IMG/VR virus record: IMGVR_UViG_3300050016_000171
Coordinates: 1 to 64,000 of that record
Length of the DNA stretch: 64,000 nucleotides
Source of the DNA: a virus
Reading direction: 5' to 3' (one strand)
Shown here: positions 8,583-26,005 of the stretch, one piece after another
Layout of the letters: every line of letters starts with the position of its first letter
Numbering within the stretch: the first letter of the stretch is position 1
Made by a program: the position numbers and the translations under genes
The notes under the pieces: generated by a model
The model's input: only the letters and a program-made list of their open reading frames with translations
What the model was told of the DNA's origin: nothing
Databases searched by the model: none

Positions 8583-8663
8583 CAGACTGTAACGCTCCCT
8601 CCGGCGATAGGCGCTGGTACGCAACGTATTCGTTTTATTGACTCTGTTCCTGCGATTCAATAA
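8583..8663 (+). CDS. major capsid protein, exon 2 (QTVTLPPAIGAGTQRIRFIDSVPAIQ*)
   Basis: In frame with exon 1 after splicing; spliced product is 341 aa. Confidence 0.85.
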   Translation, partial: QTVTLPPAIGAGTQRIRFIDSVPAIQ

Positions 8664-8675
8664 AACAAAGACTGC

Positions 8676-8704
8676 TTGACACGGACGGCCATCTGTGTTA
8701 TGGT
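8676..8704 (+). promoter_or_regulatory. sigma70-type promoter for the GIY-YIG gene
   Basis: TTGACA-17 bp-TATGGT with extended -10 TG. Confidence 0.75.
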
Positions 8705-8720
8705 AGTTTTGTAATAAACC

Positions 8721-8773
8721 GTTTGAGGGGTGCCACAAACACCCCTCGAACAAATCCTTTTGTGGAGGATTTG
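8721..8773 (+). promoter_or_regulatory. two-hairpin kissing-loop leader, copy 1
   Basis: GTTTGAGGGGTG-[CCACAAA]-CACCCCTCGAAC then CAAATCCT-[TTTGTGG]-AGGATTTG; loops are exact reverse complements; covers the GGAGGA RBS. Confidence 0.8.
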
Positions 8774-8774
8774 A

Positions 8775-9413
8775 ATGTTTGTTTATCTGATTACGAATAG
8801 CATCAACGGAAAGAAGTATGTAGGTCAGCACTCCGGAAATGACCTGGATAAGTACTGGAGTCATTGTGTCGCCCACGCTTTAAGAGGCAGCAGTGATAAG
8901 CCGTATCTGTACAATGCCGTCCGAAAATACAGACCTGAAAATCTCTGTATTAAACCCCTCGTAATAGTTGGGACTAAATGGGAAATGGATTTGTATGAGA
9001 AAGGGATGATAAAAGCTCTTAACACCCGAAAGCCGTTTGGATATAATATCACAGAAGGCGGAGACGGCGTTCTTGGTTTGAGGCATTCCGAAGAATCAAA
9101 TCAGAAAAACAGAGAAGCGCATTTAGGTCGAAAAGACTCTCCTGAGACCATAGAGAAAAAGAGAGCGGTATGGGTTGGGCGCAAACATACGGAAGAGACT
9201 AAATTAAAAATGTCTCTACATGTTAAATCAGAAGAACACCGAAAAAAGATTTCAATTGCGAAGATGGGGAACACAGCAAGACTGGGTATGAAAAATACAA
9301 CACACTCTAGGCGTCCTAGGTCTGTTGAAGTGAGACTGAAAATGTCTGAGGCGCAAAAGCGTCGCAGAGAAAGAGAAAGGCAAGACGATGGCAATACAGT
9401 TGGCAGGCGGTAA
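8775..9413 (+). CDS. free-standing GIY-YIG homing endonuclease with NUMOD3 repeats
   Basis: FVYLITNSINGKKYVGQ, GYN motif, repeats such as GRKHTEETKLKMS and KSEEHRKKIS; AT-richer than its neighbours. Confidence 0.9.
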   Translation: MFVYLITNSINGKKYVGQHSGNDLDKYWSHCVAHALRGSSDKPYLYNAVRKYRPENLCIKPLVIVGTKWEMDLYEKGMIKALNTRKPFGYNITEGGDGVLGLRHSEESNQKNREAHLGRKDSPETIEKKRAVWVGRKHTEETKLKMSLHVKSEEHRKKISIAKMGNTARLGMKNTTHSRRPRSVEVRLKMSEAQKRRRERERQDDGNTVGRR

Positions 9414-10065
9414 GAAGCAGAACTGGTCAATCAATGAGGAGTACAAAAACATTGACGACCCACTTCGCAGTACCGGCATGAACAATAGTACGACGAAAGA
9501 GTCCATTAAGCAATTACTCGCTGGCGGAACGCCAGACTGGGTTTCGCATCCTGAGGACTACAAGAATTTCGTCAAAGAATCGTTTGCCGCAGAAAAAGAG
9601 ATGTCGGATCAGCAAGTCGAAGGCTACAAGATGGATCATCAAGACCTGTTGACGGATGAGAAGCCACGCAAGGTTCACATCATCACAACTCGGGACTTCA
9701 TCAAAAAGCTGAGAGACAACGGGGTTCGCTGCTTCACGGTCGATAATGGTTTGGCCGGGACGGTGGGGCTCTGGGCAGCGCGTGGCACCCAAATGGTCTA
9801 CGTCTGCTACTTGCAAATTCCGTGTATGTACGAATGGTCTGTCCTCAGGCTGGACGCCCACAACCTACCCAATGGTGAACGATTTCGGGGTTGGCGTACT
9901 GTACTGATGCAACTGATCGTCAAGAACATCATGAGTGAAGAGAAGGTCCACAAGATTTTCGGTAAGCCGACTGGCGGAATTGTCAGCAGCATTTACCGGA
10001 AGACGCTGTGGTCCCGTCGCAACAAGAAGAGAGTAGCAGAACCATCCGCCGACCTGACAACCTAG
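9388..10065 (+). CDS. hypothetical phage protein
   Basis: 225-aa ORF colinear with the structural operon. Confidence 0.7.
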   Translation: MAIQLAGGKKQNWSINEEYKNIDDPLRSTGMNNSTTKESIKQLLAGGTPDWVSHPEDYKNFVKESFAAEKEMSDQQVEGYKMDHQDLLTDEKPRKVHIITTRDFIKKLRDNGVRCFTVDNGLAGTVGLWAARGTQMVYVCYLQIPCMYEWSVLRLDAHNLPNGERFRGWRTVLMQLIVKNIMSEEKVHKIFGKPTGGIVSSIYRKTLWSRRNKKRVAEPSADLTT

Positions 10066-10118
10066 TCAGGAACCGGATTACACACACTGGTGCAGTATAA
10101 GACAGTGTTGGAGTCGAA

Positions 10119-10670
10119 ATGGCAAACAAAGCAGAAAAGGACGAGGCAGTAAAGGCAGCAACGGCAGATTCAGTGCCAGCAAAGATTACAGAAGAGCAAC
10201 AGCGTGACTTGCTGTTCCGCAGTCTTCTGCGTCGTGAAGAAGCAGCCGCGAAAGCGGAAACCGCGCAAGCGGAAGCAGGCATCGCCCGCCAGAAACAGCG
10301 CGCGATCAACACGCTGAACCGCAACAACAAGCTGTTTGCAAAGCAGTCGCGTTGCACCCACTTGAAGGGCGGCAGAGTTAAGTCGAAGACGGGGATCAAG
10401 GATTACGCCCTGTTCTATCACACATACATCGATCAGACCCAGAAGATCGGTTGCTTCATTTGCAAGATGCGTTGGACACCGCAAGACACGATAGAGTATC
10501 TTGTCCGCAACGGTCGAAAGAAACGGAATCACACGCGAATCGGTTGGATGGAAGCATTGGAACTGTTCGCGCAGTCGAGCAACACGCCTAGCCAGTCAGA
10601 AATTCCCCACAAGCCTATTGAGTTCAAGAGCGCCGAGGGAGAGGACATGGGAGAGGCGACACCAGAGTAA
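10119..10670 (+). CDS. hypothetical protein with CxH/CxxC motifs
   Basis: GGAG RBS; CTHLKGG and CFIC motifs. Confidence 0.7.
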   Translation: MANKAEKDEAVKAATADSVPAKITEEQQRDLLFRSLLRREEAAAKAETAQAEAGIARQKQRAINTLNRNNKLFAKQSRCTHLKGGRVKSKTGIKDYALFYHTYIDQTQKIGCFICKMRWTPQDTIEYLVRNGRKKRNHTRIGWMEALELFAQSSNTPSQSEIPHKPIEFKSAEGEDMGEATPE

Positions 10671-10684
10671 GCGCGACACATATA

Positions 10685-10711
10685 GAGGCGGTGGGTTACT
10701 CCTACCGCCTC
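10685..10711 (+). terminator. GC-rich hairpin, possible terminator
   Basis: GAGGCGGTGGG-ttact-CCTACCGCCTC just after the stop codon; U-tract is weak. Confidence 0.5.
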
Positions 10712-10730
10712 GAAACTTTAAGGGGATGAC

Positions 10731-12203
10731 ATGGGACAGACACCGAATGTAGGCTTGTGGACGCGTGGTCCGATGAACGGCGGGTCCGGCCCGTCTACGC
10801 CCACCTTCGAATGGGACTTTGATTACAACATGAACGCCCTCGACGCTGCCATAGGCGCGTTACAGAAGGGCGGCGGCGGAAGCAGCCAGCCTTGGGTCAT
10901 CCAGCCCGTACTCAGTGCGGCACGCACAGTCACGGATGGCGTTCTCAACTCCACCACCCTAATCACCTCCGCAACAGCTAAGTTCACGCAGGCGGATGTT
11001 GGCGCATGTATTTTCTTGCTTGGGGCGAGTGTTGGCTTGATCCCAGTTGTCGGAGGAATACAGCCCACGATCATCAGTGTTCAAAATTCTACCACCGCAA
11101 CTATTTCGGCAGTACCGGGTGGCGGCGCTGTATTGGGCGTCACTTTCGTTATTGGGCAGGATAACTCTGCGGCGCTGAACGCGGCGATGGTGAAGGCCGT
11201 AGCGGCTTCCGGCGTGCTACTTGTTCCGGCAGGCCAGTTCATTATCAATCAACTCAATTTGTTTGGAGCGGCGACAACCAATGCCACAGGTGCCTTCGCG
11301 GTTAAGGGCGCGGGCTACGGGCAGAGTCAATTGCTGCCATCTCCGTATTTAGCACCAACTCCGACTGCACCAATCGTTCAGTTCTCGTCTGGCACGATGA
11401 CGTGGGACGGGTTGGACATGAACTGGATGCGGATAAGCGCCTATCAAACAGGGTCGTATCCGTATCAGGGCGGGGGCTCCGGCATTTCATTTAACGGCGC
11501 TGCCCGAGTACAAAATTGTCAGTTCGTGGGTTGGTCGGCCCCGAACGCGGTTACTTTTGAATGCGATTCGGACGACCTCAACATACAAGATGTCGATGTG
11601 TGGCTTAACCAGAACACAGCCTCTGTGATCCACAGTCTGAATTTTCGAGCCAACAATTGCTATTTTCAGGGCAACTATGGCATGGTCATTGGGGACTTGA
11701 GTTGGGGCAAAGTCACAAACTGTACGATTCGCGGAAACGCGGCCGGCCTCATGCTCACAGGATTCTCGGGCGGCGGGACCGACAACTATTTTGTAAATTG
11801 CCGTTTCTCGGGTCAGTGGAACATCTATAATCCGGCTACGGGCGGAATCGTTTGCGCGTCCTTTATTGGCTGTTCTTTTACTGCCGATGCAGCGACGCCG
11901 GGTTTTACTCCTGCATTTGCAAACAGCGGCGGTCTGAAAACTCTCGGAACCGGAGGCACGTATAACTTCACGAACTGCCGATTTGGATGCGCCGGGACTT
12001 ACGACGCAATCGATAACTTGAGTGGAAACACGGTCGTCTTACAAGGATGTCAATTCGTCAACTACACGACTCCGGTCAACTACAAGTGGACCGGAAAATC
12101 GATTGTTAACCCTCTCGGCGCCACATTGTTCGATGGCGGCGGGAACCATAATTTGCTTTCGAATATGACCCAGAACGGGACGCTTGTCACTGGATCGAAT
12201 TAA
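10731..12203 (+). CDS. tail spike-like right-handed beta-helix (pectate-lyase-like) protein
   Basis: GQDNSAALNAAM...LLVPAGQF entry motif followed by repeated NCxF beta-helix rungs. Confidence 0.7.
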   Translation: MGQTPNVGLWTRGPMNGGSGPSTPTFEWDFDYNMNALDAAIGALQKGGGGSSQPWVIQPVLSAARTVTDGVLNSTTLITSATAKFTQADVGACIFLLGASVGLIPVVGGIQPTIISVQNSTTATISAVPGGGAVLGVTFVIGQDNSAALNAAMVKAVAASGVLLVPAGQFIINQLNLFGAATTNATGAFAVKGAGYGQSQLLPSPYLAPTPTAPIVQFSSGTMTWDGLDMNWMRISAYQTGSYPYQGGGSGISFNGAARVQNCQFVGWSAPNAVTFECDSDDLNIQDVDVWLNQNTASVIHSLNFRANNCYFQGNYGMVIGDLSWGKVTNCTIRGNAAGLMLTGFSGGGTDNYFVNCRFSGQWNIYNPATGGIVCASFIGCSFTADAATPGFTPAFANSGGLKTLGTGGTYNFTNCRFGCAGTYDAIDNLSGNTVVLQGCQFVNYTTPVNYKWTGKSIVNPLGATLFDGGGNHNLLSNMTQNGTLVTGSN

Positions 12204-12293
12204 TGCTCTCAACCTTCCTGCATCAAACCCAACAGAACAAAATTTCCTGCAAGCTTAACCCCAGCTGCGGAAATTTTGTATTGGTGAGCTAAC

Positions 12294-13346
12294 ATGCCTA
12301 CGGCCATTAATCTTTTGTCGAACGTGGGAGTTGCGGTTTTGGCGGGCTCCACAATCGTCAACACAGGTAACACGGTTCTCAATGGTGATTTGGATTTAAG
12401 TCCGGGCAGTGTCGTATCGGGTTTTCCTCCCGGCATCGTGACCGGCGCACAGCACGTTGACGATCCGACCGCTGTTCAGTCTCAACTTGATCGGACGACT
12501 GCGTACAACCAAGCAGCCGCCGCTTCGCCTGCCACCCCTATAGCGTCCGCTTTGGACGCTGTGACTCTCAACGCAGGTATATACTCAGCGGGTACGTTCT
12601 CGCTCGCGGGTGGCACTCTCACGCTGGACGCGCAGGGCAACGCAAACGCCGTCTGGATCTTCCAGATGTCAACTACGCTCATCACCGCGGCGGGCTCGAC
12701 CGTTCGAATTATCAACGGGGGTTCGGCACTGAATGTTTTCTGGCAAGTGGGCAGTTCGGCGACAATAGGCGCCAACAACACTTTTCTGGGGGCAATTCTC
12801 GCAGCGGCTTCGATTACACTGACCCCAAGCGGCACCACGGTTACAGGTCATTTGCTTGCCTCCGCTGAAGTCTCCCTTGGCGACGCTGAAGTTATCTTGC
12901 CCGCAGCAACAACGTATTTGATTTCAGGCAACGCGGGTCACGCGGGCGTGACCGTCAATTTGACGGGGGCGGCGACGGGAACCACCACGTCAGACATTTT
13001 GGGCAACTATCAGTTCACGGAACTCGTCAACGGAACTTATACCGTCACACCGGTTCTTTTGGGGTATGCGTTCGTCCCCGTTAACCGTTCGCCAGTCATC
13101 AATGGCGCGAACCAGACGGGCGCGAATTTCGTAGCGACTCTCTTGGCGTACAGCGTCCCCGATGACAGGGATTATTCTGTGTTCCCCAATACCGCTATCG
13201 ATGTTCAGGGCACGGAGACTTATGTGGTCCCTACCCATCCGAGCCGTACAGAGCCCGTTGACAGTCGAGAGAATAAACCTGTTGACAGTCGTAAGTCACC
13301 AAATATCCCGGAGAATTCGAGAACGAATCCTCCCTTCGAGAGTTAA
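12294..13346 (+). CDS. DUF3494 (IBP-1) ice-binding-domain protein with Ig-like domain
   Basis: [61 protein letters not shown]; then GNYQFTELVNGTYTVTP; no signal peptide. Confidence 0.9.
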   Translation: MPTAINLLSNVGVAVLAGSTIVNTGNTVLNGDLDLSPGSVVSGFPPGIVTGAQHVDDPTAVQSQLDRTTAYNQAAAASPATPIASALDAVTLNAGIYSAGTFSLAGGTLTLDAQGNANAVWIFQMSTTLITAAGSTVRIINGGSALNVFWQVGSSATIGANNTFLGAILAAASITLTPSGTTVTGHLLASAEVSLGDAEVILPAATTYLISGNAGHAGVTVNLTGAATGTTTSDILGNYQFTELVNGTYTVTPVLLGYAFVPVNRSPVINGANQTGANFVATLLAYSVPDDRDYSVFPNTAIDVQGTETYVVPTHPSRTEPVDSRENKPVDSRKSPNIPENSRTNPPFES

Positions 13347-13592
13347 ATGATAAACGTTTCTCTTGTTATCTCCATCGTGAGTTTGGCGGCTTCTGCGTAT
13401 GCGGTGTTTCGCGCGCCCCGCCACGTCACGACGACCCAACAGATCACGACAACCCACGAGACGACCCATACAGTGGCCCTCCCCGCTCCCGCAGTTTCGG
13501 GAAACGCGGTATGCTCCAAGTGCAACAGGGCGGTGGCGCGGTTCGAAGTTCAGGCCGACGCATCTGTGGTTTGCGCAAATTGTAAAAGGTAG
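13347..13592 (+). CDS. small membrane-anchored zinc-ribbon protein
   Basis: N-terminal TM segment; CSKC and CANC motifs. Confidence 0.6.
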   Translation: MINVSLVISIVSLAASAYAVFRAPRHVTTTQQITTTHETTHTVALPAPAVSGNAVCSKCNRAVARFEVQADASVVCANCKR

Positions 13593-13597
13593 GATTC

Positions 13598-15277
13598 ATG
13601 ACCGGACCATTAAATAGTTCGAAACCCACAACCAGCATAATCACTGGCGGCGTCTACAATGCTACGCTACCGGCCCCTCAGGATAAACAAGCCTGCGCAT
13701 TGCAGTTGGACTCCGCGGGAAACCTGAAGGTAAACGTTATCGTTGGTGGCGGTGGTGGTGGATCAAACGCCTCGGTGGGATTGAACGGCGTACTTGCACC
13801 CACGTCATCGACAGAAATTGGATTCATAGGTTCGGGTGGACTCGAAACTCCAGTCAGTGCAGCCAACCCACTGCCGATTACCGGAAGTATCAGCGCGACG
13901 AACCCCTCAGTCGGCGTGATTGGCGCAACTGCGCCCTCAGACGCCACGCTTCTCGGCGTCATTGATGCCAGCGGCAATTTGCAAGGCAACAGCGCGTCCA
14001 ATCCTGTTCGCACCGATCCCACGGGCACAACGATCCAGCCTGTGTCGGGTACGGTTGCCGTCTCCAACTTTCCGGCATCTCAGGTCGTCGCAGGAAACCT
14101 CACGAACAACAACGCGGTTCCCGGGGCCAACAATATTGGTGTGCTGTCTGCGGAGGCCGTGCCGTCCTACACAGCATTGACTTATAATTCTGGCGATATG
14201 GTTATGCCCGTCACCGATACTCACGGCGCGCTTAACGAAGACTTGCAGGCCGTCGCAGGCGTGGCTCTCGGCGCTACCGCAGTGGTGGCCTATGGCTCTA
14301 CGCCAGCCGCTGTGAACGTGCCCGGCGTGAATGCTTTTGTCACGAATTTTCCCGCTACTCAACCTATTTCGGGTACCGTCACTGCGTTACAGGGCACATC
14401 CCCATGGCTTGTGACTGGTTCGTTTTACCAGTCGGTGCAGCCGATTTCAGGCACGATTGCGATTTCAAACTTCCCGTCAGCCCAATCGGTTACGCAGGGA
14501 ACGTCGCCGTGGGTTGTGAGTGGAACGGTTTCTATTGCTTCTTTTCCTGCACTACAGAACGTTAATCTCACACAGTTGAATAGCGTTGCTTTGGGTTCGC
14601 CGTCCAACTATGGAACCTCGCCGGGCGCTGTTGCTGTGATCGGCGTGAATGCTTTTGTCACGAATCCCGTGGCTGTGACTGGGACTTTCTGGCAAGCTAC
14701 GCAACCTGTGTCGGGTACGATTGCGGCAACGCAATCAGGGACGTGGACTGTCGGTATTTCCGCTTCGCAGACTATCGCAGTTACGAATGCAGGGACATTC
14801 GCTGTGCAGGCCACCCTAGCGGCTGAAACCACAAAAGTCATCGGCACCGTCAATCAAGGCACGTCACCGTGGGTTGTCTCAGGCGCGGTTACAGTTGCCT
14901 CTACAACGATCACAGGCACAGTGGCGACAGTTGCCACACCGTCCACAACCGTGGGCGTGCTCAGCAACGTCCAACAGGCTCTGACGACTTCCATCAACAT
15001 TAAAGCCAGTGCGGGCAGCTTTTACGGATTTGATTGGTTCAACCCCAACGCGGTCACGGTTTACATTTTCATTTACAACACGGCGACTACGCCGGGGACG
15101 ATTGGCGCGACGACGGTCTTGATTTATCAGAAGGGACTTCCGGCAGGCGCAGGTTCGAACATCGAGTTCCCGATGGGGATTCCCTGTTCCGCGGGAATCG
15201 CAATCGCGGTGAGTACGTCTCCAACATCAGCAGCTGCTCCGTCAACAGGTCTGGTTCTCACGACCTTGTATGATTAA
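13598..15277 (+). CDS. fibre-like repeat virion protein
   Basis: Thr/Val/Gly-rich; NFPATQPISGT, QGTSPWVVSG and TGTFWQATQPVS repeats shared with 17183..19246. Confidence 0.65.
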   Translation: MTGPLNSSKPTTSIITGGVYNATLPAPQDKQACALQLDSAGNLKVNVIVGGGGGGSNASVGLNGVLAPTSSTEIGFIGSGGLETPVSAANPLPITGSISATNPSVGVIGATAPSDATLLGVIDASGNLQGNSASNPVRTDPTGTTIQPVSGTVAVSNFPASQVVAGNLTNNNAVPGANNIGVLSAEAVPSYTALTYNSGDMVMPVTDTHGALNEDLQAVAGVALGATAVVAYGSTPAAVNVPGVNAFVTNFPATQPISGTVTALQGTSPWLVTGSFYQSVQPISGTIAISNFPSAQSVTQGTSPWVVSGTVSIASFPALQNVNLTQLNSVALGSPSNYGTSPGAVAVIGVNAFVTNPVAVTGTFWQATQPVSGTIAATQSGTWTVGISASQTIAVTNAGTFAVQATLAAETTKVIGTVNQGTSPWVVSGAVTVASTTITGTVATVATPSTTVGVLSNVQQALTTSINIKASAGSFYGFDWFNPNAVTVYIFIYNTATTPGTIGATTVLIYQKGLPAGAGSNIEFPMGIPCSAGIAIAVSTSPTSAAAPSTGLVLTTLYD

Positions 15278-15288
15278 GGGGAACTGAG

Positions 15289-16062
15289 ATGGCGATTGCA
15301 GTCAACGGGTTGTACACCCCCAATTTCTTTTATAGTTTGGGGCCCGGGCCGGGCAATAACACCGCGACTACAGCCTCCTATAACCAAGCGGCGGGGAACC
15401 TGATTGTGGTTGCTGTTTCTTCTTATGGCAGCCCCAACGACGGCGCTCCGTGGACTGTTACGGACGCGGCGGGGAACACATACGTTGCTGGTACGCGGTT
15501 TGATCCGGGCATCAATCGTGCAGTGCAGTTTTTTTGGGCAAAGAATTGTCTTGGAAACGTCATAAACCAGATAACCGTAAACGCCACGCTTGCCTCCGGG
15601 GGTTTTGCTTTCTTTATATCCATCTGCGCGTGGGACATTTCTGGCGCTGCACTGGTTACCCCTAATTGCGGCGAAGCGATGGGATGGCAAGCTGCTCCCG
15701 TCACATCACCGATAGCAACAGGGGCTGGCGCAGGATCGTCGAATCTGACGACCACCAAGGCCAATGCTATTATTTTAGCATTCGGAACTCAGAATGATTA
15801 TGGCGCCCCTATCGGTACGCGCACGGCACAAACGAGTCCGGCGTATACTTTGGATGGTGTCGATTGGAGTGCTTCCTACGATGCGCTGATTTATGAGCAT
15901 CTTGTTGTCGCAGCGATTCAATCGGGGGTGAGTGTCAATTTCAACACCACAGACACAGCTTCTTCGGGCATCATCGTGGTGGAGGCATTTGCATCAGCGA
16001 CACAACCGTCCGTGGGCGGTCCCATCGAACTGATGATGATGGGTTGTGGAGATCCGAGGTAA
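15289..16062 (+). CDS. beta-rich putative virion/tail protein
   Basis: GNLIVVAVS...VTDAAGNTY beta-sandwich-like pattern; lies in the tail module. Confidence 0.6.
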   Translation: MAIAVNGLYTPNFFYSLGPGPGNNTATTASYNQAAGNLIVVAVSSYGSPNDGAPWTVTDAAGNTYVAGTRFDPGINRAVQFFWAKNCLGNVINQITVNATLASGGFAFFISICAWDISGAALVTPNCGEAMGWQAAPVTSPIATGAGAGSSNLTTTKANAIILAFGTQNDYGAPIGTRTAQTSPAYTLDGVDWSASYDALIYEHLVVAAIQSGVSVNFNTTDTASSGIIVVEAFASATQPSVGGPIELMMMGCGDPR

Positions 16063-16086
16063 TTTTAGATTGAGGAGCAAGCAGCA

Positions 16087-17181: not shown

Positions 17182-17182
17182 A

Positions 17183-19246
17183 ATGGCAATTCGACAGGTA
17201 GTTCCGATCTCGATTCTTTTGCAAGGCGATGGTGCTACGGGCACTTTCGTTTTTTACTTGGGCGATGTTTATCAGATATCTTCGGGTTCGGCAGTGGATT
17301 ATGGTTCGCTGGGTGTTATCCCCACGGGCATCGAAATCCCCAATCCGCCCGCGCCACTAATAAGCGCCACGATAGATGCAGGCGGAAATATTACAATCAC
17401 GTTGGTCAGTCCGATTCCTGCGGGACAGATTTTGAATTTCGTATTGAACCTGCTGTTTAACAGTGGTGATTCAACCCCATTTCCTATACCATTTCCTATT
17501 ACAACTACTATGGTGGAGAACTTTCCAGCGACTCAGCCAGTTTCAATTGTCGCGCCTGTAGCGGTTACGCAATCTACTTCCCCTTGGGTTGTGACTGATG
17601 CCGCAGCCGAAGGATATCTCGCCACAATTGCGGGTGCTATCTCAGCGGGCAAGATAGCAGTCAGCGGAACGATTGCGGCAACGCAGTCTGGTGCGTGGAC
17701 TGTTACCGCTACGAACACCGGAACCTTCGCCGTTCAGGTCACTTCGGGAACGGTTACAACCACGCCTCCGCTCAACGCGACGACGAACATCACACTGTGG
17801 AACACCGTTGCTTTGGGCTCGCCGACCGCCTATGGAACGGCTCCGAGCGGAAACGTCATAGGCGTCAACGCTTTCGTCACAAACTTCCCCGCGACTCAGC
17901 CCGTGTCGATTGCGGCACCTGTAGCGGTAACTGGAACTTTTTGGCAGGCAACGCAACCCGTCAGCGGAACTTTCTGGCAGACAACGCAGCCTGTATCCGG
18001 CATCATCGCGGCGACACAATCAGGGGCTTGGTCCGTCGGCATCACGACATTGGGCCAGCAACTCGCGGCAGCGTCTGTTCCTGTTGTCTTGACAGCCGCC
18101 CAGATTGCGGCACTGACCCCGCTCTCCACGATTGCCGTTTCCAACTTTCCGGCATCTCAGGCCGTGACTGGTACGTTCTGGCAGGCTACACAGCCTGTCT
18201 CTATCGCCACCATGCCGTCCACTCCTGTGACTGGAGTTTTCTGGCAGACGACGCAGCCTGTGTCGGGAACCATTGCGGTTTCGAACTTTCCGGTATCTCA
18301 GGCGGTGACTGGTACATTCTGGCAGACTACTCAGCCGGTCTCTATCGCAACACTTCCTGCTTTGACTGCGGGCACGGCTGTCATCGGTCACGTCATTGTG
18401 GACTCGGCGCCGACCACGGCGGTCACAGGAACGTTCTGGCAGGCCACTCAACCAGTTTCCATTGCATCCATGCCGTCCACCCCTGTTACCGGAGTTTTCT
18501 GGCAGGCAACGCAGCCAGTAGATGGCGCGCTGACGAACAACAACGCTGCGCCTGCTGCGACGCTTCAGGGTGTGCTGGGCGCAATTGCCGAGACCGCTTA
18601 TGCGACAGTCACGTATACGACAGGCGATATGGTTCTGCCCGTCACTGATCTGCACGGCGCGCTCAACACTGATCTACAAGCCATCGGGGGTGTCGCTGTT
18701 GTTGCGGCAACGGCGGGCGTACAGAAAGTGGGTATCGTTGGAAGTGCTGGCACAGTGTTTGACGGCCCTATTACAGCTGCTGGTGCCCCGGCGAACGGTC
18801 TCGCGGTTTTGCACGTATACGAGTCCACTGCACCAGCGTTGACAACAGGTCAATCGGTGGCGGCGCAATGCGATTCTGCGGGCAGTCTGTTTGTCAAGCC
18901 GCTTCGGCGTAGTCAAACTGTCTCTAAAGCCACGACCATTATAACTACAGGAGCCACATCGATTCTGGCCGCGCAGGCGGCGGGTACTTTTGCCGACATA
19001 TCATCCTTGATTGTTTCGGCTGCGGATACCACTTCGCGCAGCCCATTCACTATCACGTTGTCGGATGGTACCAATTCTTATATTTATGACATGGATTCGA
19101 ACGCGTCTGCGGGGTGCCAATTCATGAATCTCGTATTTAACCCGCCGCTTCCCGCAACGTCTGCGGCGACCGCGTGGACGCTCAATTTGAGCGTAGCGAC
19201 GACCGTTCATGTCACAGTTATAGCGATTTTGCAGAAAGCTAGTTAG
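17183..19246 (+). CDS. fibre-like repeat virion protein
   Basis: Seven FWQ[AT]TQPV repeats plus blocks shared with 13598..15277. Confidence 0.65.
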   Translation: MAIRQVVPISILLQGDGATGTFVFYLGDVYQISSGSAVDYGSLGVIPTGIEIPNPPAPLISATIDAGGNITITLVSPIPAGQILNFVLNLLFNSGDSTPFPIPFPITTTMVENFPATQPVSIVAPVAVTQSTSPWVVTDAAAEGYLATIAGAISAGKIAVSGTIAATQSGAWTVTATNTGTFAVQVTSGTVTTTPPLNATTNITLWNTVALGSPTAYGTAPSGNVIGVNAFVTNFPATQPVSIAAPVAVTGTFWQATQPVSGTFWQTTQPVSGIIAATQSGAWSVGITTLGQQLAAASVPVVLTAAQIAALTPLSTIAVSNFPASQAVTGTFWQATQPVSIATMPSTPVTGVFWQTTQPVSGTIAVSNFPVSQAVTGTFWQTTQPVSIATLPALTAGTAVIGHVIVDSAPTTAVTGTFWQATQPVSIASMPSTPVTGVFWQATQPVDGALTNNNAAPAATLQGVLGAIAETAYATVTYTTGDMVLPVTDLHGALNTDLQAIGGVAVVAATAGVQKVGIVGSAGTVFDGPITAAGAPANGLAVLHVYESTAPALTTGQSVAAQCDSAGSLFVKPLRRSQTVSKATTIITTGATSILAAQAAGTFADISSLIVSAADTTSRSPFTITLSDGTNSYIYDMDSNASAGCQFMNLVFNPPLPATSAATAWTLNLSVATTVHVTVIAILQKAS
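17925..18520 (+). repeat. degenerate coding repeats (TG[TV]FWQ[AT]TQPV)
   Basis: Seven imperfect copies of the tt[ct]tggcag...cagcc/caacc motif inside the CDS. Confidence 0.8.
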
Positions 19247-19283
19247 CGGAAGAAGTAAAAATCGCAGTTCAGGAGGAAGTACA

Positions 19284-19490
19284 ATGGGCGTCACGAAACA
19301 AGCAGTACCAGAAAAGGCAGCATCGAAGTTGAATCCGCTTCAAGTTGTTGAATCAGAAATAGCCAACTTCATTACGCAACGCGATCAGACCGCGGCAAAC
19401 CTCAATGCGCTTAACGGCGCGATTCAGGCCTCTCAGCATATTTATGCGAAGTTGAAGGCAGAAGCGGAGAAGGTCGAAGAAGTCGAGTAG
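19284..19490 (+). CDS. small coiled-coil protein (possible fibre chaperone)
   Basis: AGGAGG RBS; ANLNALNGAIQ heptads; follows the fibre genes. Confidence 0.6.
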   Translation: MGVTKQAVPEKAASKLNPLQVVESEIANFITQRDQTAANLNALNGAIQASQHIYAKLKAEAEKVEEVE

Positions 19491-19500
19491 GTAAAGGGAA

Positions 19501-20610
19501 ATGCTTAACACACAGAGTACGGTTACGCTGCAACGGATAGTCAATATCGCACTCGCGTTCGGAGACATCGAGCCCGTTTTGAACACTTCGGGTGACTCGT
19601 CCGAACCAGCGTTGACGATTGCCAACGACGTGATGAACGCGATCTGCGGGACGTCCTTCCCGGGCAAGTGGAACGAACTTGTCCTGCCGCCGTTCTATAC
19701 GAACAGTTGGCAGCAGGATTATGCCGTTGTTTATCCCGCGAATTGGACCCCGGGCCAGCCTGCTGCGGGCCAGTCTCTTACGAATCTGGCGTGGCTTACC
19801 CGCGGCATTTGTGTGGACATCAACAGCGATTCCTTCCCCAAACCGTTTCGTGAGGTAGAGGTAGGCCGCGAGTTGCAGCAGAACCCGGGCGCGAACTATA
19901 TCGCGGACATGGGTTCGTCCGGGGGCGGCAATCCTCTTTTCTTAGCCAACTTCTTCCCCAACCACACTCTGTACTACGGCACGTGGGGCGCGCTGAACAA
20001 CGGCACGCAGAGCATCGGTAATAACCCCGGGCCGGGCTCAGCATACACGACCCCCTTGGGGTCGCAGAGCATGCCCTCAAATCCGATTACGCAGATTCAG
20101 GATGCGAACGGAAACTTGCTCGTGCTCACCACTTACGGCATCGAGGGTAGCGCGGCACCGGTCCTTGCGGCGAACTCGCCAGCAGGTACGACGGTCTCCG
20201 GCACCGGCGCAACCACGCAGTGGACGGTTGTCGATCCTTGGGGCCAAGGTTTCCGTATCAATCCTACGCCTTCGCAGACAGGCGCGGTATGGCAGTTCCT
20301 TCTGATCGGTCAGGCTCAGCCGGTTCGGTTCACATCTTTGAGTCAGACGCTGTTTCCGCTCCCAGATCAATACGAACCCAATTTCCGGCAGGGATTCATT
20401 GCGCAGTGCTATCGATATTCGACGGACAGCAAGATCCGCGGCAAGTTCAAAGATGAGTGGCAACTTTGGTTGGCGTCTATGGTGGAATTGCGCGCGAAAC
20501 AGGATCGTGAATTGGAAGAGAACATCTTCGTCCCCGACCGCGGTATCATGGGCGGTCAACAGCGTCGTGCCGGACTGTGGCGCGGCGGCGGGTATCCGTA
20601 TCAGTACTAA
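19501..20610 (+). CDS. putative head-tail adaptor / tail tubular protein A-like
   Basis: EPALTIANDVM...KWN...QQDY pattern, paralogous to 20620; upstream of the nozzle gene. Confidence 0.55.
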   Translation: MLNTQSTVTLQRIVNIALAFGDIEPVLNTSGDSSEPALTIANDVMNAICGTSFPGKWNELVLPPFYTNSWQQDYAVVYPANWTPGQPAAGQSLTNLAWLTRGICVDINSDSFPKPFREVEVGRELQQNPGANYIADMGSSGGGNPLFLANFFPNHTLYYGTWGALNNGTQSIGNNPGPGSAYTTPLGSQSMPSNPITQIQDANGNLLVLTTYGIEGSAAPVLAANSPAGTTVSGTGATTQWTVVDPWGQGFRINPTPSQTGAVWQFLLIGQAQPVRFTSLSQTLFPLPDQYEPNFRQGFIAQCYRYSTDSKIRGKFKDEWQLWLASMVELRAKQDRELEENIFVPDRGIMGGQQRRAGLWRGGGYPYQY

Positions 20611-20619
20611 GGACTGACA

Positions 20620-21339
20620 ATGCCATACACGCTTCAAAATACGATTAACTGGGCACAGACGTTCATCGAGTACTCTCCCCTGACTGCGGGAGTCGCCAAC
20701 GAGCCTGCGATCTCAGTCGCGAACATGATTGTTTCGACGATCACGAACGCCCCGCTCACGTGGGCTTGGAATCGCAAGGAATATGGCGGGCTCACCCTCG
20801 TCACTTCGCAACAGGACTATGTGGTCACTATTGCTGACTTCAGCTTCCTCGAAAAAGTCACGCTGACCACTGCGGATGCTAAATATGCCTTTGATGTGAA
20901 GGACGTGTACAACACCACTACTTTGGGTGTTTCGGTTTCGAAACCCGCTGAGCCCAAAGGCGTTTCAGTTCACTTGGTGCAGTACGGCACGAACGTGACT
21001 CTGCGTTTTATGGCAATCCCGGATCAAGCCTACACATCAGTTATCACGTATCAGACTTTGATTCCCGATATGTCTTCGCTGGGCGCGACGTGGCCCCTCC
21101 CCTCACAGTACAAGGATATCTTCAACAACCTTTTCGCCGCGGAAGCGTATCAGGCGGTGGACGACGACCAGCAGGCGCAGCGTTATCGCATGCGCGGCGT
21201 GGCGGCTCTTCTGGCTAAGGCCGAGGGCTTGAGCGAAATGCAGCGCAACTCTGTACTGGCCCAGTTCTTGGTTCGCGGCAGTCAGACGCAGGCCCAGCAA
21301 CTTCGGACCCAGCAGGGCACACAGGCACGCGGACAATAA
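20620..21339 (+). CDS. putative head-tail adaptor / tail tubular protein A-like
   Basis: EPAISVANMIV...WAWN...QQDY and PDQAY motif typical of podovirus adaptors. Confidence 0.6.
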   Translation: MPYTLQNTINWAQTFIEYSPLTAGVANEPAISVANMIVSTITNAPLTWAWNRKEYGGLTLVTSQQDYVVTIADFSFLEKVTLTTADAKYAFDVKDVYNTTTLGVSVSKPAEPKGVSVHLVQYGTNVTLRFMAIPDQAYTSVITYQTLIPDMSSLGATWPLPSQYKDIFNNLFAAEAYQAVDDDQQAQRYRMRGVAALLAKAEGLSEMQRNSVLAQFLVRGSQTQAQQLRTQQGTQARGQ

Positions 21340-24300
21340 TGACGAATTTACTCGAAGTCTCCGGCGCACAGCCCCAGAAACAGCCCAAGTATGTTCCGCT
21401 GTTTATGGACAAACAGTTCACCGGTCTGTACACACAGCGTTCCGTGTTGCACGACCCATCCGACATCGCGACTGCGCGATTTTACGGCGGTCGGCCCGAT
21501 GCTTTGTGGGCAGGATCAAACGTCGAGTTGACGAACTTGCTGACGCTCGCGCGTCGGCCCGGCCTCAGTCCTTTCTCAGGCGCTATCTATCCCACAACGC
21601 CAGATCGTGCGTTTTCGTTTCAGACAGCATTGGGCCAAATTCAAGTTATCATTGATACGGGCGATTCGCCGACATTTGTTTTAACGGCTGTCTCGGCTGT
21701 GTCCGCAGGAGTCAGTGGTACGTATACTGGTACTATCACTGGCGGCGCCGCGGGCCCGGCGCAATTCCCGAACGGCGCATACGCAGGCTTGATCTTTCTT
21801 ATCACTGGTTTTGATCTGCCGCAGAACAACGGAACGTTTGTTTGTATTTCGTCCACCGGGACGCAGTTGGTTCTCGCGAACATCAATGCCGCATTGGATA
21901 CACATGCCGGGACCGCCCTCACCGCAGGCGGGGTTTGGTACGACACGCAGAGTCCATCTGCGAGCGTTCCCCCTCAGCTTATTTTCGCAAAGTCTGTGGG
22001 CGCGGGTCAGACAGCATTTGTGGCCGTGAACGGAGTGTTGTATTTCGGAGATGGCGTTGACACGAACGTTTATACGCCCAACGGACCCAATGGAATTATT
22101 TGGGATTGGGGCATCGCTGCTCCTTTGAATCAACCCAACGTTCTCATTACGGAAAGCGGCGCTTCGGCAGTGGTGTGGCAGGCCAGCTCCGTGTATTCGA
22201 CGATGGGCCTTGTCCTTGATAGCAACGGTAACATCCAACAGCTTTACACAGTGAACGCCGACACCTCGAACCCGACTTCGCGATATGGACTTTCGTCCAA
22301 CGGTCAGCCGGTTTGGAACCAGTCAACAGCGGGCACTACGAGCGATGGTAGTGTGACGTGGACGAACGAAGGTCCGATCACCGAGTGGCAAGGATCGACC
22401 ATCTATCAACCCGGTCAGCCAATTTACGATCCCGGCACGATGTGCATTTTCATTATGTCACAAAGTTCTCAGCGAACTTCGGGTTCCGTCCGTCCGAACT
22501 TCAACGCGGTTTTCGCTCCCGGACAGGGCGGTCCTTTCGTCGGGGATGGGGATGATACGAAGTGGCAGAACATCGGTAAGGTTGGCGCGACACCCTCAAT
22601 GGTTCAACCGTGGAAGGCTACCACAGTGGAGGCCGTGTACAACTTGCCCGCGAGCGGCACGCGTCCGAAATATCCCAACAGCGCGATTATCGAGCCCACG
22701 TTGGTTCTTCCGCCTCCTGCGGGACAGCTAGTATATTTGCAAGTTGCTACGACTTCGGGTACAACTGGTAGCGGAGCCAACGCGCCCACGTGGGGAACGG
22801 CCCCGGGATTCCAAACATACGACGGTCAACTGGGTTGGACGATGTTGAGCAATGCGACATGGCATTCGTCAACCCCTTATACTCAGTGGAGCACCGGCCT
22901 AGCTATTTTCTCGGTAATCGTTGACAGCAATGGTAACTTTCAGGTTTGTACGACAACCGGACTCTCCGGCCAGCATCAGCCCGGCACCGCAGGCGTCGGC
23001 CCATGGAATACTTTGTACGGCGGCGTCACGAACGACGGTTCTGTTATCTGGACCTGCGTCGGCCAGAGCATGACTTGGAACACAAACACGATTTGGTATT
23101 TGCCGATCAACGGATTCGCGCCCCCGAGTAAATCGCAACCCTACGGTTCTTCGGCGGTCATCGACAGTAACGGCAACATAGAATTCGTTTTGGAGTCCGG
23201 TCTGTCAAACACCGTGGCTCCGTCGTGGGGCACGCAGGGCACGCAGACAATTGATAACGCCATCACGTGGTACAACGACGGCGTTGCTTTGACGAACTCT
23301 CTTTCGTGGAAGCTGGGCTATGTTTACGCCTATTCGTACGAGTCGCGTCTCACGACAGATCCCTCGAACACGGTCGCGCCTCCGGGGTTTCCGACCCCAC
23401 TAGGCGTACCTGTGGGTTCTGAGTTGGGCGACATTTCAACTGCGTCCCCGGTCTACACCATTACTGGCGCCAACACCGGCGCGGTTAACACGATTTCTGG
23501 TATCGGCTCCCTGAATCCGGCAGTCGATACGATCATCATTTGGCGTTCCGCGGACGGCGGTGGCCCCAACAACATGTTCTTTCTGACCGAGATCCCGAAC
23601 CCCCCTCCGCTGTCGAAAACGGTTCCGGGCAACTGGTCGTTCAACGATTATTTGCCGGACGTAGCTACGGCGATTTATCCGGGCTTGGACAACTTGATCC
23701 CGGCTCCGATTGACGACGAAAATAACCAGCCGCCTTCGACGTTCTTGCCGATGGTGTACAACTTCGAGCGCATCTGGGGAGCGGACGGCGCAAAGGTTAT
23801 TTGGAGCGGCGGTCCTGACGTCATCACAGGCAATCCCAACGCTGCGTTCAACCCCATTGATGAGTTTCCGTATCTTGCGACGGTGACGCGCGTCGTGAAA
23901 ACTTCGCAGGGTCTCGTCGTGATGTTGACGGATAGCATCGAGATCATTGCGGGCGGGCCCCTGACGTCATCGTTCTATCCCCTGACGCTGGCTCCGGGAA
24001 TCGGAATGCTAAGTTACAACGCCCTCGACGTTTACATGGGAGAGATCTATTTCTTCAGCTCGGACGGACAGGTCAAGTCTGTCAGTCCGTCCTTGAACGC
24101 GCCGAACTTTGGATTCGCATTGGGTGACAAGTTCGCTGTCATGAACCCCAACGACGTCTATGTGGCGGTTCAACAGTCAGGCATCGATAACTGCATCATG
24201 ATTGCGGACGGCAGCACCGGCTGGTATCGCTGCAATCCCCACCAGATCCCGGGTGGCGCAAACGGGCCGGAGCCGATCTGGTCTCCTTTCGCGAACATCA

Positions 24301-25427
24301 CGAATGGTTGTCAGATGGTTCAGAGCGTGGAAGTGCGCGCGGGAATCAAGAAGCTGCTCGTGGGTGCAACCACGGGCGGCGAACAAATCCTTCAGCGCGA
24401 TCTTTCTATTTTTACAGATGGCGGCTCTTCGCTCAGTCCTTCGCCTATTAACCTATTGACGGCAGCCACATACGGCGTTCTGGCGGGCACCACGATTACG
24501 AACTCTGGTCCTACTACCATCACTGGCGACTTGGGGCTCAGCCCCGGTAGCGCCGTAACGGGCGCGCCCACGGTGACGGGAGCTACGAACATCGACAACC
24601 CGGCTGCGGTTCAGGCCAAGACGGATTTGACTACGGCGTACACCCAAGCTGCCGCGTATCCCGGAGCGACGATTATTCCGACAGAGTTGGGCGGCACGTC
24701 TCTCGGGCCCGGAGTCTATACGAGCGCGTCGGGTACATTCTCCATAACGACGGGAACCCTGACCCTCAACGCCGGTGGCGACCCCAATGCCTTTTGGATC
24801 TTCCAAATGGCGACTACTTTGGTGACGGGCACAGGCACCTCCGTAGTTCTGACCGACAGTGCGCAGTCTCTTAATGTGTTCTGGCAAGTCGGCAGTTCTG
24901 CTACGATTGGCGTCAGTTCGACTTTTGTGGGAACCATACTCGCGCTCACATCTATTTCTGTGAATACAAGTGCCACAGTGACCGGGCGATTGCTGGCTCG
25001 GAATGGCGCAGTGACGATGTTGAGTAACGGCGTTACGGTATCCACATCAACTGTTGTGGGCACGATGTATGACGCCAACTTCACGATGGGCAGCATCGTG
25101 TTGGCTCATCCGGGACAGATAGCTGCTTTGAAATTCCTTGAGATGGACATGTCGGGAGTTTCGTATCGGCCCGTAGTGAGTTGTCTCTTGAACGAGATTG
25201 CTGGTACGTTTACGCCCATGGCGTTGATTCCGCAGTTTGATCCACCGTCGATTTACGGGGCGACTCTTTCGCCGACGAGTTATTCGCCGAACCGATATTA
25301 CTTCGCGTCTACGGGAAAGTTGGCGCGTTGCCGTCATCTTCAAATCAACGTGGACTTTGGCATGACTCCGAATCAGGACATGATCTATAATCTTTGCATT
25401 TTTGGCCGCCTTTTCGTAGAATTTTAG
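21339..25427 (+). CDS. tail nozzle / tubular protein B-like protein with inserted DUF3494 domain
   Basis: 1362 aa after the adaptor; propeller-like core ([28 protein letters not shown]); DGxVxW repeats; DUF3494 at about 24444-25045. Confidence 0.7.
25394..25422 (+). promoter_or_regulatory. sigma70-type promoter for the EndoVII gene
   Basis: TTGCAT-17 bp-TAGAAT inside the 3' end of the nozzle gene. Confidence 0.55.
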
Positions 25428-25446
25428 GGTTTGTAGCTACAAAGTC

Positions 25447-25493
25447 GGGGAGTGCCAGACACACTCCCCTTCTATCCTTTGTCTGGAAGGATA
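25447..25493 (+). promoter_or_regulatory. two-hairpin kissing-loop leader, copy 2
   Basis: GGGGAGTG-[CCAGACA]-CACTCCCC then TATCCTT-[TGTCTGG]-AAGGATA; loops are exact reverse complements; covers the GGAAGGA RBS. Confidence 0.8.
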
Positions 25494-25495
25494 AC

Positions 25496-26005
25496 ATGAA
25501 GAAACTAACAACGCACTGCAAACGCGGTCACGAGTTTACTCCCGATAATACGTACATTGCACCGAAGGGCGGGCAGCGCCACTGCAAGGCTTGTCGAGAA
25601 ATTGTTTGGGCGGGCGACCCAAACAGATTGCAAAGAAGTCGGGATTATCAGAAGAAATGGGCGGCAGATAAGAGAACGGGCTATTCTCTGTACGGTCGAA
25701 AATTCGATCTGAAAAAGTTTTATGGTCTCACGGTTGAAAGATACGTTGAGATGTTCGAGGCGCAAGGCGGCAAATGCGCGATCTGTCTTCGACCAGAATC
25801 CGCGATTACTAAATACGGTCAGGTTAGATGGTTGTCGGTTGACCACGATCATGCCTGTTGTCCCGGAAAGGTATCGTGCGGCAAATGCATACGTAGGTTG
25901 CTTTGTCATTTTTGTAATCACGCTCTGGGTTTGTTTCACGACGACCCCGAACTTCTGGCCCGAGCGATAACTTATATCGGAGAATTTAGAGGAACGCGTG
26001 GCTGA
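25496..26005 (+). CDS. free-standing endonuclease VII-family (HNH-like) homing endonuclease
   Basis: [14 protein letters not shown]...CKAC N-terminal module; YGLT...QGGKCAIC...VDHDH...LLCHFCN. Real start is ATG 25496. Confidence 0.88.

Follow-up and report, generated by a model that had tools for sequence, protein, structure and literature searches.

Two homing-type endonuclease genes of unrelated families in the 64-kb window, the whole stretch of viral DNA that was analysed, are each preceded by a compact RNA leader that recurs upstream of nuclease genes in other uncultured phages. The leader consists of two hairpins, H1 and H2, whose 7-nt loops are complementary to each other, and the Shine-Dalgarno (SD) sequence of the nuclease gene lies within the second hairpin. 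Both stems and the loop-loop helix covary, and the copy that precedes the second gene belongs to a mobile cassette. Based on this anatomy, we infer that the leader probably restrains translation initiation of free-standing homing endonuclease genes that reside in highly transcribed late operons.

Copy 1 of the leader occupies positions 8721-8772, 3' of the major capsid gene, and ends just before the ATG (8775) of a GIY-YIG/NUMOD3 homing-type endonuclease gene (8775-9413, plus strand, 212 aa). Read directly from the sequence, H1 (8721-8751, plus strand; dG -19.6 kcal/mol) has a 12-bp stem, formed by GTTTGAGGGGTG (8721-8732) and CACCCCTCGAAC (8740-8751), that encloses the 7-nt loop CCACAAA (8733-8739). 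It is followed by H2 (8752-8772, plus strand; dG -7 to -8.7 kcal/mol), in which the stem strands AAATCCT (8752-8758) and AGGATTT (8766-8772) enclose the loop TTTGTGG (8759-8765). The SD sequence GGAGGA (8764-8769) spans the H2 loop and the 3' arm. A sigma70-like promoter (8676-8704, plus strand) stands upstream of this cassette, with TTGACA, 17 nt and TG-n-TATGGT, agreeing with the consensus at 10 of 12 hexamer positions; its spacer contains a small hairpin (8679-8698). The arrangement TTGACA-N17/18-TGnTAnnnT is likewise found 5' of H1 in four related loci (L002, L127a, L245 and L232). The insertion site of copy 1 was filled in all relatives seen, either by a GIY-YIG gene (L002) or by an EndoVII gene (L245), and no empty copy 1 site was found among them.

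Copy 2 (25447-25492) lies 3' of a virion gene of 1362 aa and leads into the ATG at 25496 of an EndoVII-type (HNH superfamily) homing-type endonuclease gene (25496-26005, plus strand, 169 aa). Its H1 (25447-25469, plus strand; dG -13.8 kcal/mol) is built from an 8-bp stem, GGGGAGTG (25447-25454) and CACTCCCC (25462-25469), around the loop CCAGACA (25455-25461), and its H2 (25474-25492, plus strand) from ATCCTT (25474-25479) and AAGGAT (25487-25492) around the loop TGTCTGG (25480-25486), with the SD region GGAAGGA at 25485-25491. Direct reading bears out the preliminary description in that both loop pairs are exact reverse complements and that two compensated pairs distinguish the copies. The nuclease identities it proposed also hold, with NUMOD3, GIY-YIG and the PHROG homing endonuclease assignment for the first gene and Endonuclease_7 (PF02945) for the second. 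Of the common architecture that it described, the two hairpins, the SD within H2 and the adjoining ATG stand, and the sigma70-like promoter is credible for copy 1 only. A candidate promoter for copy 2, TATAAT at 25386, was rejected: it consists of codons of the upstream gene, and relatives without the nuclease gene retain them.

Copy 2 is part of a mobile free-standing homing endonuclease cassette, as revealed by a presence/absence polymorphism between conserved flanking genes. The inserted segment (25428-26005, plus strand, ~570 bp) comprises a palindrome, the leader and the EndoVII-type gene; it begins directly behind the stop codon of the upstream gene, and the 3' end of the nuclease gene overlaps the start of the next gene (GTG at 25998). 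It is missing from two relatives, G001 and G003, in which the upstream stop codon is followed after 3-4 nt by the ATG of the next gene. Other nuclease genes occupy the site in L232, L235 and L244.

Several searches of the window converge on the same two positions. The pattern of H2 plus ATG occurs twice, against 0.03 occurrences expected, and the predicted fold of both leaders is two hairpins (z -4.4 to -5.0). An unfiltered covariance model search of the 64 kb returned exactly the two copies, each of which reaches 52-57 bits under model R1 (E about 1e-15 to 1e-17). A generic scan for two hairpins found 7-nt loop complementarity nowhere else in the window. Weak R1 matches at 18997-19045 (minus strand, within a plus-strand gene) and at 10685-10733 were discarded, as their loops are not complementary. 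The third nuclease-like gene of the window, on the minus strand at 55494-56033, lacks a structured leader, which indicates that the leader is not obligatory for nuclease-like genes.

Pattern scans in which the loop letters were left free recovered 71 distinct leader copies in uncultured phages, with 42 different loop sequences among them. The family is defined by a G+C-rich H1 with a 7-nt loop CCNNNNN and, 12-29 nt further on, an H2 whose loop NNNNNGG is exactly complementary to the H1 loop and is followed by AG and then by the start codon of a nuclease gene; both window copies have all of these features. Loop 2 always ends in GG, with AG next to it, and the distance from loop 2 to the start codon is 4-14 nt, in most cases 7-10 nt. 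In the first set of 15 copies, the H1 stem measures 7-15 bp and the linker between the hairpins is 0-3 nt long in 10; in the second set, of 58 copies, 30 have a linker of -4 to 2 nt and all the others but one a linker of 3-9 nt. Wherever the downstream gene could be assigned, it encodes a homing-type nuclease, and these genes include GIY-YIG, EndoVII, several HNH and T5orf172 members, in agreement with the earlier proposal that the module is reused before unrelated nuclease families.

The complementarity of the two loops is maintained throughout this family while their letters change. Across all copies, 510 of 511 loop-loop pairs are Watson-Crick, the remaining one being G-U. The first set of 15 contributes 104 Watson-Crick pairs and one G-U among its 105, a value as high as which was reached in 0 of 100,000 shuffles. 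Matches in metagenomes had complementary loops in 8 of 8 cases with four loop positions free in the pattern, and a second, independent pattern scan with five free positions gave complementary loops in 58 of 70 unique matches. In the tool-based pair count, which covered 13 sequences with copy 2 left out, the loop-loop helix is 100% paired, with five of its seven pairs changed on both sides; the H1 and H2 stems covary too, and slid controls were paired at only 40-52%. The other sequences were counted by script. The H2 loops of copy 2, L244, L246 and L247 are misplaced in the MAFFT and covariance model alignments.

Homologues that had lost loop complementarity were sought as a refutation of the preliminary description, and every homologue found keeps it by compensatory change. 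Orthologous leaders illustrate this at close range. The GIY-YIG gene has an orthologue, 81% identical, in L002/L003, where the leader carries different, compensated loops relative to copy 1, and the leader of the EndoVII orthologue in L235 differs from copy 2 by one compensated loop pair. G-U pairs, read on the sense strand, make up 66 of 1072 stem pairs and only one of the 511 loop-loop pairs (p about 2e-10), and those in the stems fit a sense-strand RNA fold. Divergence per site reaches 0.59 in the loops, compared with 0.23 and 0.27 in the flanks. The pairs L127b/L154 and L246/L247 (same genome) have identical stems and differ at 6 of 10 loop letters, and a loop sequence is never common to two copies of one genome.

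Outside this set of phages, the searches returned little. None of 185,579 species genomes matched in a pattern scan, so no host or prophage lead emerged. Among 84 loci of other phages with distant EndoVII or GIY-YIG homologues, model R1 found no true member and a generic two-hairpin scan only one weak match, so the compact leader is not general to the GIY-YIG and EndoVII families. Positions 8000-12000 had no megablast match among GenBank phages, which points to a novel phage. Two groups of candidates were set aside: a conserved coding stretch, GGTGCCGGTGGCAC..., which made up the bulk of the first viral scan matches listed and lacks the H1 stem, and locus L248, with a score of 13.5 bits, a 6-nt loop and a 66-aa non-nuclease ORF. 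When Rfam release 15 was run on the window, only tmRNA reached its gathering score, and neither leader, nor eight related loci, matched any family at E<0.4. Below threshold, the highest-scoring match lay on the opposite strand and was to FinP, an antisense RNA with two hairpins, at 17.8 bits (E 0.43) where the gathering score is 45. RF02996 (int-alpA) was absent from the matches up to E 10. The suggestion that this is not a named motif is consistent with these results, and no description of this leader was found in the literature searched.

A conserved 5' palindrome is a new accessory element of the leader family. Copy 2 carries a perfect 14-nt example, TTTGTAGCTACAAA (25430-25443, plus strand), at the 5' edge of its cassette. 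Perfect palindromes of 10-14 nt are present in 18 of the 71 leaders, and 17 of these 18 end 0-5 nt 5' of H1, a placement that shuffles produced in 2.6%. Four core sequences were seen, three of them recurrent (TGTAGCTACA, TGTACGTACA and TGATGCATCA), and in the recurrent cores self-complementarity is complete, extending through the central letters, which would not have to pair if they formed a hairpin loop. By nearest-neighbour prediction, the copy 2 palindrome would form a 16-bp RNA homodimer duplex of -16 kcal/mol. Leaders with a palindrome stand before at least three nuclease families, and this occurrence rules out the palindrome as the operator of one nuclease.

The invariant letters of the family suggest how the leader could act. 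The SD core GGAG(G) is divided by the boundary between loop 2 and the H2 3' arm. Its AG(G) half pairs with the 5' arm of H2 (..CCU), and its GG half, together with the five freely varying bases upstream, pairs with the H1 loop (CC+5 nt). The invariant CC of the H1 loop and the CCU of the H2 5' arm together make up a split 16S anti-SD, CCU-CC, opposite GGAGG. In this scheme, AGGA of the H2 3' arm and GG of loop 2 each have a pairing partner, and H2 alone is weak, with computed energies of -2 to -9 kcal/mol, compared with -5 to -10 kcal/mol for the loop-loop helix. Because the split anti-SD CCUCC faces GGAGG, translational repression appears to be the best reading; as with repression itself, we infer its polarity and whether it would act in cis or in trans. 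Textbook helix dimensions suggest that the three helices would not all form in one molecule, because H1 and H2 abut.

Among the possible arrangements, the one that we tentatively consider likeliest places the loop-loop helix in cis, as an H-type pseudoknot that would alternate with H2, leaving one half of the SD masked at all times. A related arrangement exists in repZ of ColIb-P9/IncB, where a hairpin loop pairs next to the ribosome-binding site (RBS) in competition with a local RBS hairpin, as in the leaders described here. The repZ pseudoknot activates translation and depends on a leader peptide whose translation opens the RBS hairpin, and the system is the target of an antisense RNA. By analogy with repZ, the pseudoknot could be the activating conformer, since part of the SD would stay single-stranded in either cis state. 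The next likeliest arrangement, which we regard as possible but doubtful, is a loop-loop helix between two leader molecules. Loop 1 of one leader would pair with loop 2 of an identical second leader, and the reverse, so that H1, H2 and both loop-loop helices coexist and the SD is fully masked, with a palindrome of the copy 2 type adding a further duplex. Each mRNA would then be translated less as its level rises, and the leader would amount to a dosage limiter made of RNA alone, with a code private to each cassette. Self-associating leaders might, with the same rather low probability, lock the SD only at high transcript abundance, and the loops might serve as private addresses that prevent cross-silencing among the nuclease cassettes carried by a single phage or by co-infecting ones. 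With linkers as short as 0-3 nt, pairing between molecules is the only arrangement that accommodates all three covarying helices, and several further features speak for it: the weakness of H2 by itself, loops that diverge faster than their flanks and differ even between leaders with identical stems, the privacy of loops within a genome, the near exclusion of G-U from the loop-loop helix, and 5' palindromes that stay self-complementary, that of copy 2 being predicted to dimerise the leader alone. Kissing between identical phage pRNA molecules offers a natural precedent (PMC4201828). However, mRNA self-association is not an established regulatory mode in bacteria or phages, kinetics favour cis folding over trans pairing, the palindrome is missing from three quarters of the leaders, copy 1 included, and selection against cross-pairing of cis-acting copies could also give fast loop divergence.

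The preliminary description had favoured a simple kissing interaction in cis, with both hairpins intact and their loops paired within one molecule. The covariation supports its elements, namely the loop complementarity and both stems, and ColE1 RNA I/RNA II provides a structural precedent, with 7-nt loops paired along all seven bases, in a complex of two different RNAs that serves plasmid copy control and involves neither an mRNA leader nor an SD in a loop. However, the kissing complex would be a bent stack of n1+7+n2 bp with the base of one stem at either end, about 45-70 Å apart, and with the linker and stem lengths given above such a kiss is sterically implausible, feasible only with most of H1 melted; we consider it highly improbable. 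A different kind of explanation would assign the element to RNA stability or processing, as a 5' protective hairpin or RNase III-type site, or to the DNA level, as an operator, cruciform or recombination site. The position of the very stable H1 close to the start of transcripts from the cassette promoters, a palindrome that could bind a protein, and the flagging of copy 1 H1 and H2 as terminator-like in a scan are compatible with it. Nevertheless, we judge it unlikely, as the invariant letters are those of the SD (GG, AG) and its partners (CC, CU), the start codon stands a short, fixed distance downstream, covariation with G-U confined to the sense strand speaks against a site in double-stranded DNA, and the spread of the palindrome over nuclease families argues against an operator for one of them. 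H1 was also rejected as a terminator: a U-tract does not consistently follow it, and copy 2 received no terminator-like call.

The closest known parallel is found in T-even phages, where homing endonuclease genes (I-TevI, I-TevII, I-TevIII, segB and Aeh1 mobE) have hairpins that sequester the RBS (PMC2988022). In both systems, an RNA structure directly 5' of a phage homing endonuclease gene pairs with the SD, the gene lies in an operon of the host phage, and the structure presumably serves to limit nuclease synthesis or to time it. The T-even structure is a single hairpin with a late or middle promoter inside or just before it, and late transcripts consequently lack the 5' arm. Here, in contrast, 7 nt separate the anti-SD arm from the SD, and promoters, where present, are 5' of the whole fold; no sigma70-like site was found between H1 and the start codon, with the sigma70 consensus as the search pattern, which may not be that of the phage's late promoter. 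The leaders also differ from the T-even cases in that a second hairpin would supply half of the anti-SD through a hypervariable, near-strictly Watson-Crick loop-loop helix, and in that one leader family serves many nuclease families across many phages. The pRNA of the phi29 family resembles our leaders in having two mutually complementary, covarying loops that are geometrically barred from pairing within one molecule, but it is a non-coding part of the packaging motor, with a loop pairing of about 4 bp and experimentally shown multimers (PMC4201828). The element described here is an mRNA leader with a 7-bp complementarity that includes the SD, and its self-association is hypothetical.

These results bear on how selfish genes coexist with the phages that carry them. 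Large phages have homing endonucleases as their main selfish elements, and, to our knowledge, only a few T-even examples show how these enzymes spare their carrier. The leader, a compact RNA element of about 50 nt, moves together with its cassette; it occurs in dozens of uncultured phages and before at least four nuclease families, and its covariation is unusually clean. It represents a candidate new Rfam family and a marker for nuclease cassettes and insertion hot spots, and it offers a tractable system in which a pseudoknot switch can be weighed against mRNA self-association. If self-association proved true, the leader would be a rare natural case of a concentration-sensing mRNA and would supply RNA engineering with orthogonal kissing-loop pairs.

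Both nuclease leaders in the window have the sequence given in the preliminary description, with loops that are exact reverse complements within each copy and two compensated pairs between the copies. In copy 1, which precedes a GIY-YIG/NUMOD3 gene, a G+C-rich stable hairpin (H1, 8721-8751, + strand), with a 12-bp stem that is G+C-rich at its top and the loop CCACAAA, directly abuts a weak hairpin (H2, 8752-8772, + strand) composed of AAATCCT, the loop TTTGTGG and AGGATTT, and the ATG lies at 8775. Copy 2 precedes an Endonuclease_7 (PF02945) gene; its H1 (25447-25469, + strand) has 8 bp and the loop CCAGACA and is followed by a 4-base linker and H2 (25474-25492, + strand), in which ATCCTT and AAGGAT enclose the loop TGTCTGG, with the ATG at 25496. 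The pattern of H2 plus ATG occurs twice in the window versus 0.03 expected, and both leaders are predicted to adopt the two-hairpin fold (z-scores -4.4 to -5.0). Within the 64 kb, copies 1 and 2 were the only matches both to a covariance model run without filters and to a generic search for hairpin pairs whose loops are complementary. A third nuclease-like gene (55494-56033, - strand) shares 37% identity with the leader-bearing HNH gene of an uncultured phage locus, L127. Its 57-nt leader is unstructured (z +1.7) and has no two-hairpin module, so among these genes the putative lock is confined to the two in the plus-strand capsid/virion-gene block. The window also holds a full-length tmRNA gene (34236-34591, + strand; Rfam RF00023, 113 bits), and the genome around it looks like that of a phage of >100 kb.

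The two leaders are members of a large family in which loop complementarity is under selection. For instance, a GIY-YIG orthologue with 81% identity in two IMG/VR contigs (L002 and L003) has a homologous leader whose loops, CCCTTAA/TTAAGGG, carry three further compensated changes relative to copy 1. Pattern scans with stem letters fixed and loop letters free yielded additional copies; in the metagenome collection, 8/8 matches were perfectly loop-complementary with four loop positions free. With R1, a covariance model of the leader, a complete relative of 117 kb yielded five more diverged copies, which include H2 stems with ACUCU/AGAGU replacing AUCCU/AGGAU and one loop-loop G-U. The first 15 copies contain 105 loop-loop pairs, 104 of them Watson-Crick and one G-U, a value reached by 0 of 100000 shuffles. 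A formal pair count on 13 of these copies found the loop-loop helix 100% paired, with 5/7 pairs changed on both sides, against 40-52% pairing in slid controls; H1 and H2 also covary. Another, independent pattern, in which the H1 top was GGGUG/CACCC and five positions of the loop were left free, returned 70 unique matches, 58 of them perfectly complementary. Altogether the distinct copies number 71 and carry 42 different sequences in loop 1; among them the complementary loops and compensatory changes originally described for two leaders are kept: 510 of the 511 loop-loop pairs counted are Watson-Crick and one is G-U. By comparison, 66 of 1072 stem pairs are G-U (Fisher p about 2e-10), as counted by a greedy stem-extension script that may slightly inflate the figure at helix ends.

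Loop 1 invariably begins with CC at its 5' end, and loop 2 invariably ends with GG, followed by AG, so that the Shine-Dalgarno (SD) core GGAG(G) straddles loop 2 and the 3' arm of H2. Its partners are the CCU with which the 5' arm of H2 ends and the CC that opens loop 1, and together they make up CCUCC, the anti-SD. The start codon follows loop 2 by 4-14 nt, mostly 7-10 nt. H1 is 7-16 bp long, the two loops are spaced 12-29 nt apart (mostly 15-18), and the H1-H2 linker measures 0-3 nt in 10/15 copies of the first set and is similarly short in about half of the second. Estimated energies are -9 to -24 kcal/mol for H1, -2.3 to -8.7 for H2 and -5 to -9.6 for the 7-bp loop-loop duplex.

A sigma70-like promoter had been proposed for both copies. 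That of copy 1 (TTGACA-17-TGnTATGGT) is credible, and its arrangement recurs upstream of several other leaders; that of copy 2 does not stand, as the TATAAT at 25386 is a codon run, L-Y-N, conserved in relatives without the nuclease gene. The copy 1 promoter spacer contains a small hairpin (8679-8698, ACACGGA/TCTGTGT), kept with altered sequence at orthologous sites (ACACAGAC/GTTTGTGT with a TTCG loop in L002; CACAATA/TATTGTG in L245); it may serve as an operator or as a 3' hairpin of the capsid mRNA.

Two kissing hairpins form a stack of n1+7+n2 base pairs that has one stem base at either end. From textbook helix dimensions, and allowing for the known bend, we estimate a separation of ~45-70 Å, which a linker of 0-3 nt cannot span; on this established geometry, the kiss in cis between two intact hairpins envisaged in the preliminary description is unlikely. 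We consider it probable that the leader represses translation of the nuclease gene. Within repression, the likelier arrangement, at somewhat less than even chances, is an alternative in cis: H1 and the loop-loop helix would form an H-type pseudoknot that excludes H2, provided that longer H1 stems fray at their weak base, which is rich in A/U and G-U. The estimated energy of this pseudoknot is about that of H1 plus H2, so that one SD half would be masked at all times. Reciprocal pairing of two leader molecules in trans, the sole way in which all three helices could coexist, is a less likely candidate. The simplest outcome of either arrangement would be less 30S access. Conversely, the pseudoknot could free AGGA and activate translation, the opposite polarity, by analogy with plasmid repZ, where a pseudoknot activates translation. 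The T-even phages offer a precedent for repression, as stable structures sequester the RBS of I-TevI, I-TevII, I-TevIII, segB and mobE (PMC2988022), and reduced 30S access here would match it.

Several observations favour pairing in trans without proving it. Loops diverge far more rapidly than the stem tops that flank them (0.59 differences per site versus 0.23 in the H1 top and 0.27 in the H2 top), G-U is nearly absent from the loop-loop helix, and loops are never common to two copies of one genome. In the leader pairs L127b/L154 and L246/L247, the latter within one genome, stems are identical and 6/10 loop letters differ. Furthermore, a perfect palindrome of 10-14 nt is present in 18/71 leaders versus 2.6% in shuffles, upstream of at least three nuclease families. 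In 17 of these leaders, namely copy 2 (TTTGTAGCTACAAA, 25430-25443, + strand) and L340, L329, L318, L308, L303, L302, L289, L283, L314, L292, L277, L275, L273, L261, L252 and L234, only 0-5 nt separate its end from H1; in the eighteenth, L282, it lies 20 nt upstream. Across leaders, 3/4 palindrome cores recur (TGTAGCTACA, TGTACGTACA, TGATGCATCA), and they are self-complementary right through the centre, which a hairpin loop would not demand. The extended -10 promoter, where present, is 3-10 nt upstream of the palindrome, which would place the latter at the predicted RNA 5' end. A prediction limited to nested pairs has the leader of copy 2 dimerise via the palindrome alone (-16 kcal/mol) and gives no such dimer for copy 1. 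A natural precedent is pRNA, in which identical phage RNAs kiss through two mutually complementary loops (PMC4201828).

Each assignable downstream ORF is a homing-type nuclease, and the families comprise GIY-YIG, EndoVII-type, at least four other HNH groups and T5orf172/MUG113, which bears out the proposed reuse of the leader before unrelated nucleases. In two relatives lacking the copy 2 cassette (G001 and G003), the next gene starts 3-4 nt after the end of a 1362-aa virion gene; in the window, the palindrome, leader and nuclease gene (25428-26005) sit between those same two genes, and gene order thus identifies the cassette as an insertion (window 25425-25500 versus L250 2620-2640 and L249 2615-2625). 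In other phages this site is occupied by a GIY-like ORF (L232), by an HNH gene (L244) or by an EndoVII gene (L235). The site that follows the capsid gene is occupied by GIY-YIG (window, L002) or EndoVII (L245), and homologous leaders precede all of these genes. Different nuclease genes behind homologous leaders imply that the leader travels with the cassettes or is common to them and that two hot spots are reused, and suggest that ORFs were swapped behind a shared leader at these sites. By eye, cassettes in L292, L308, L314 and L275 directly follow apparent tRNA gene 3' ends upstream of H1 (T-arm-like sequence, some with terminal CCA, then the palindrome); clusters of tRNA genes may form another hot spot for insertion.

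The major capsid gene (window 7423-8662; compare L002 279-2617 and L245 74-1459) is itself split: its reading frame terminates at 8391, and a conserved C-terminal piece of 26 aa, ending ...RIRFIDSVPAIQ*, lies in another frame at 8583-8662. The capsid homologue comes in three pieces in a 111-kb relative, and two gaps interrupt it in the 117-kb relative. This arrangement would fit an ORF-less group I intron, as separately proposed, but Rfam, at E up to 10, gave no intron match. With the GIY-YIG gene located 113 nt downstream, the proximity of a free-standing nuclease to a putatively intron-bearing gene deserves attention.

Masking of the RBS by RNA structure is an already known class of function for phage homing endonuclease genes. 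No Rfam family matches the leaders, in line with the earlier remark that no named motif was recognised in them, and our literature search found no paper describing such a leader. What is new is that two partners mask the SD; that the loop-loop helix is hypervariable, strictly Watson-Crick and, by the estimated geometry, unable to form in cis between intact hairpins; that no promoter is embedded in the leader; and that a single leader family serves many nuclease families in many uncultured phages.
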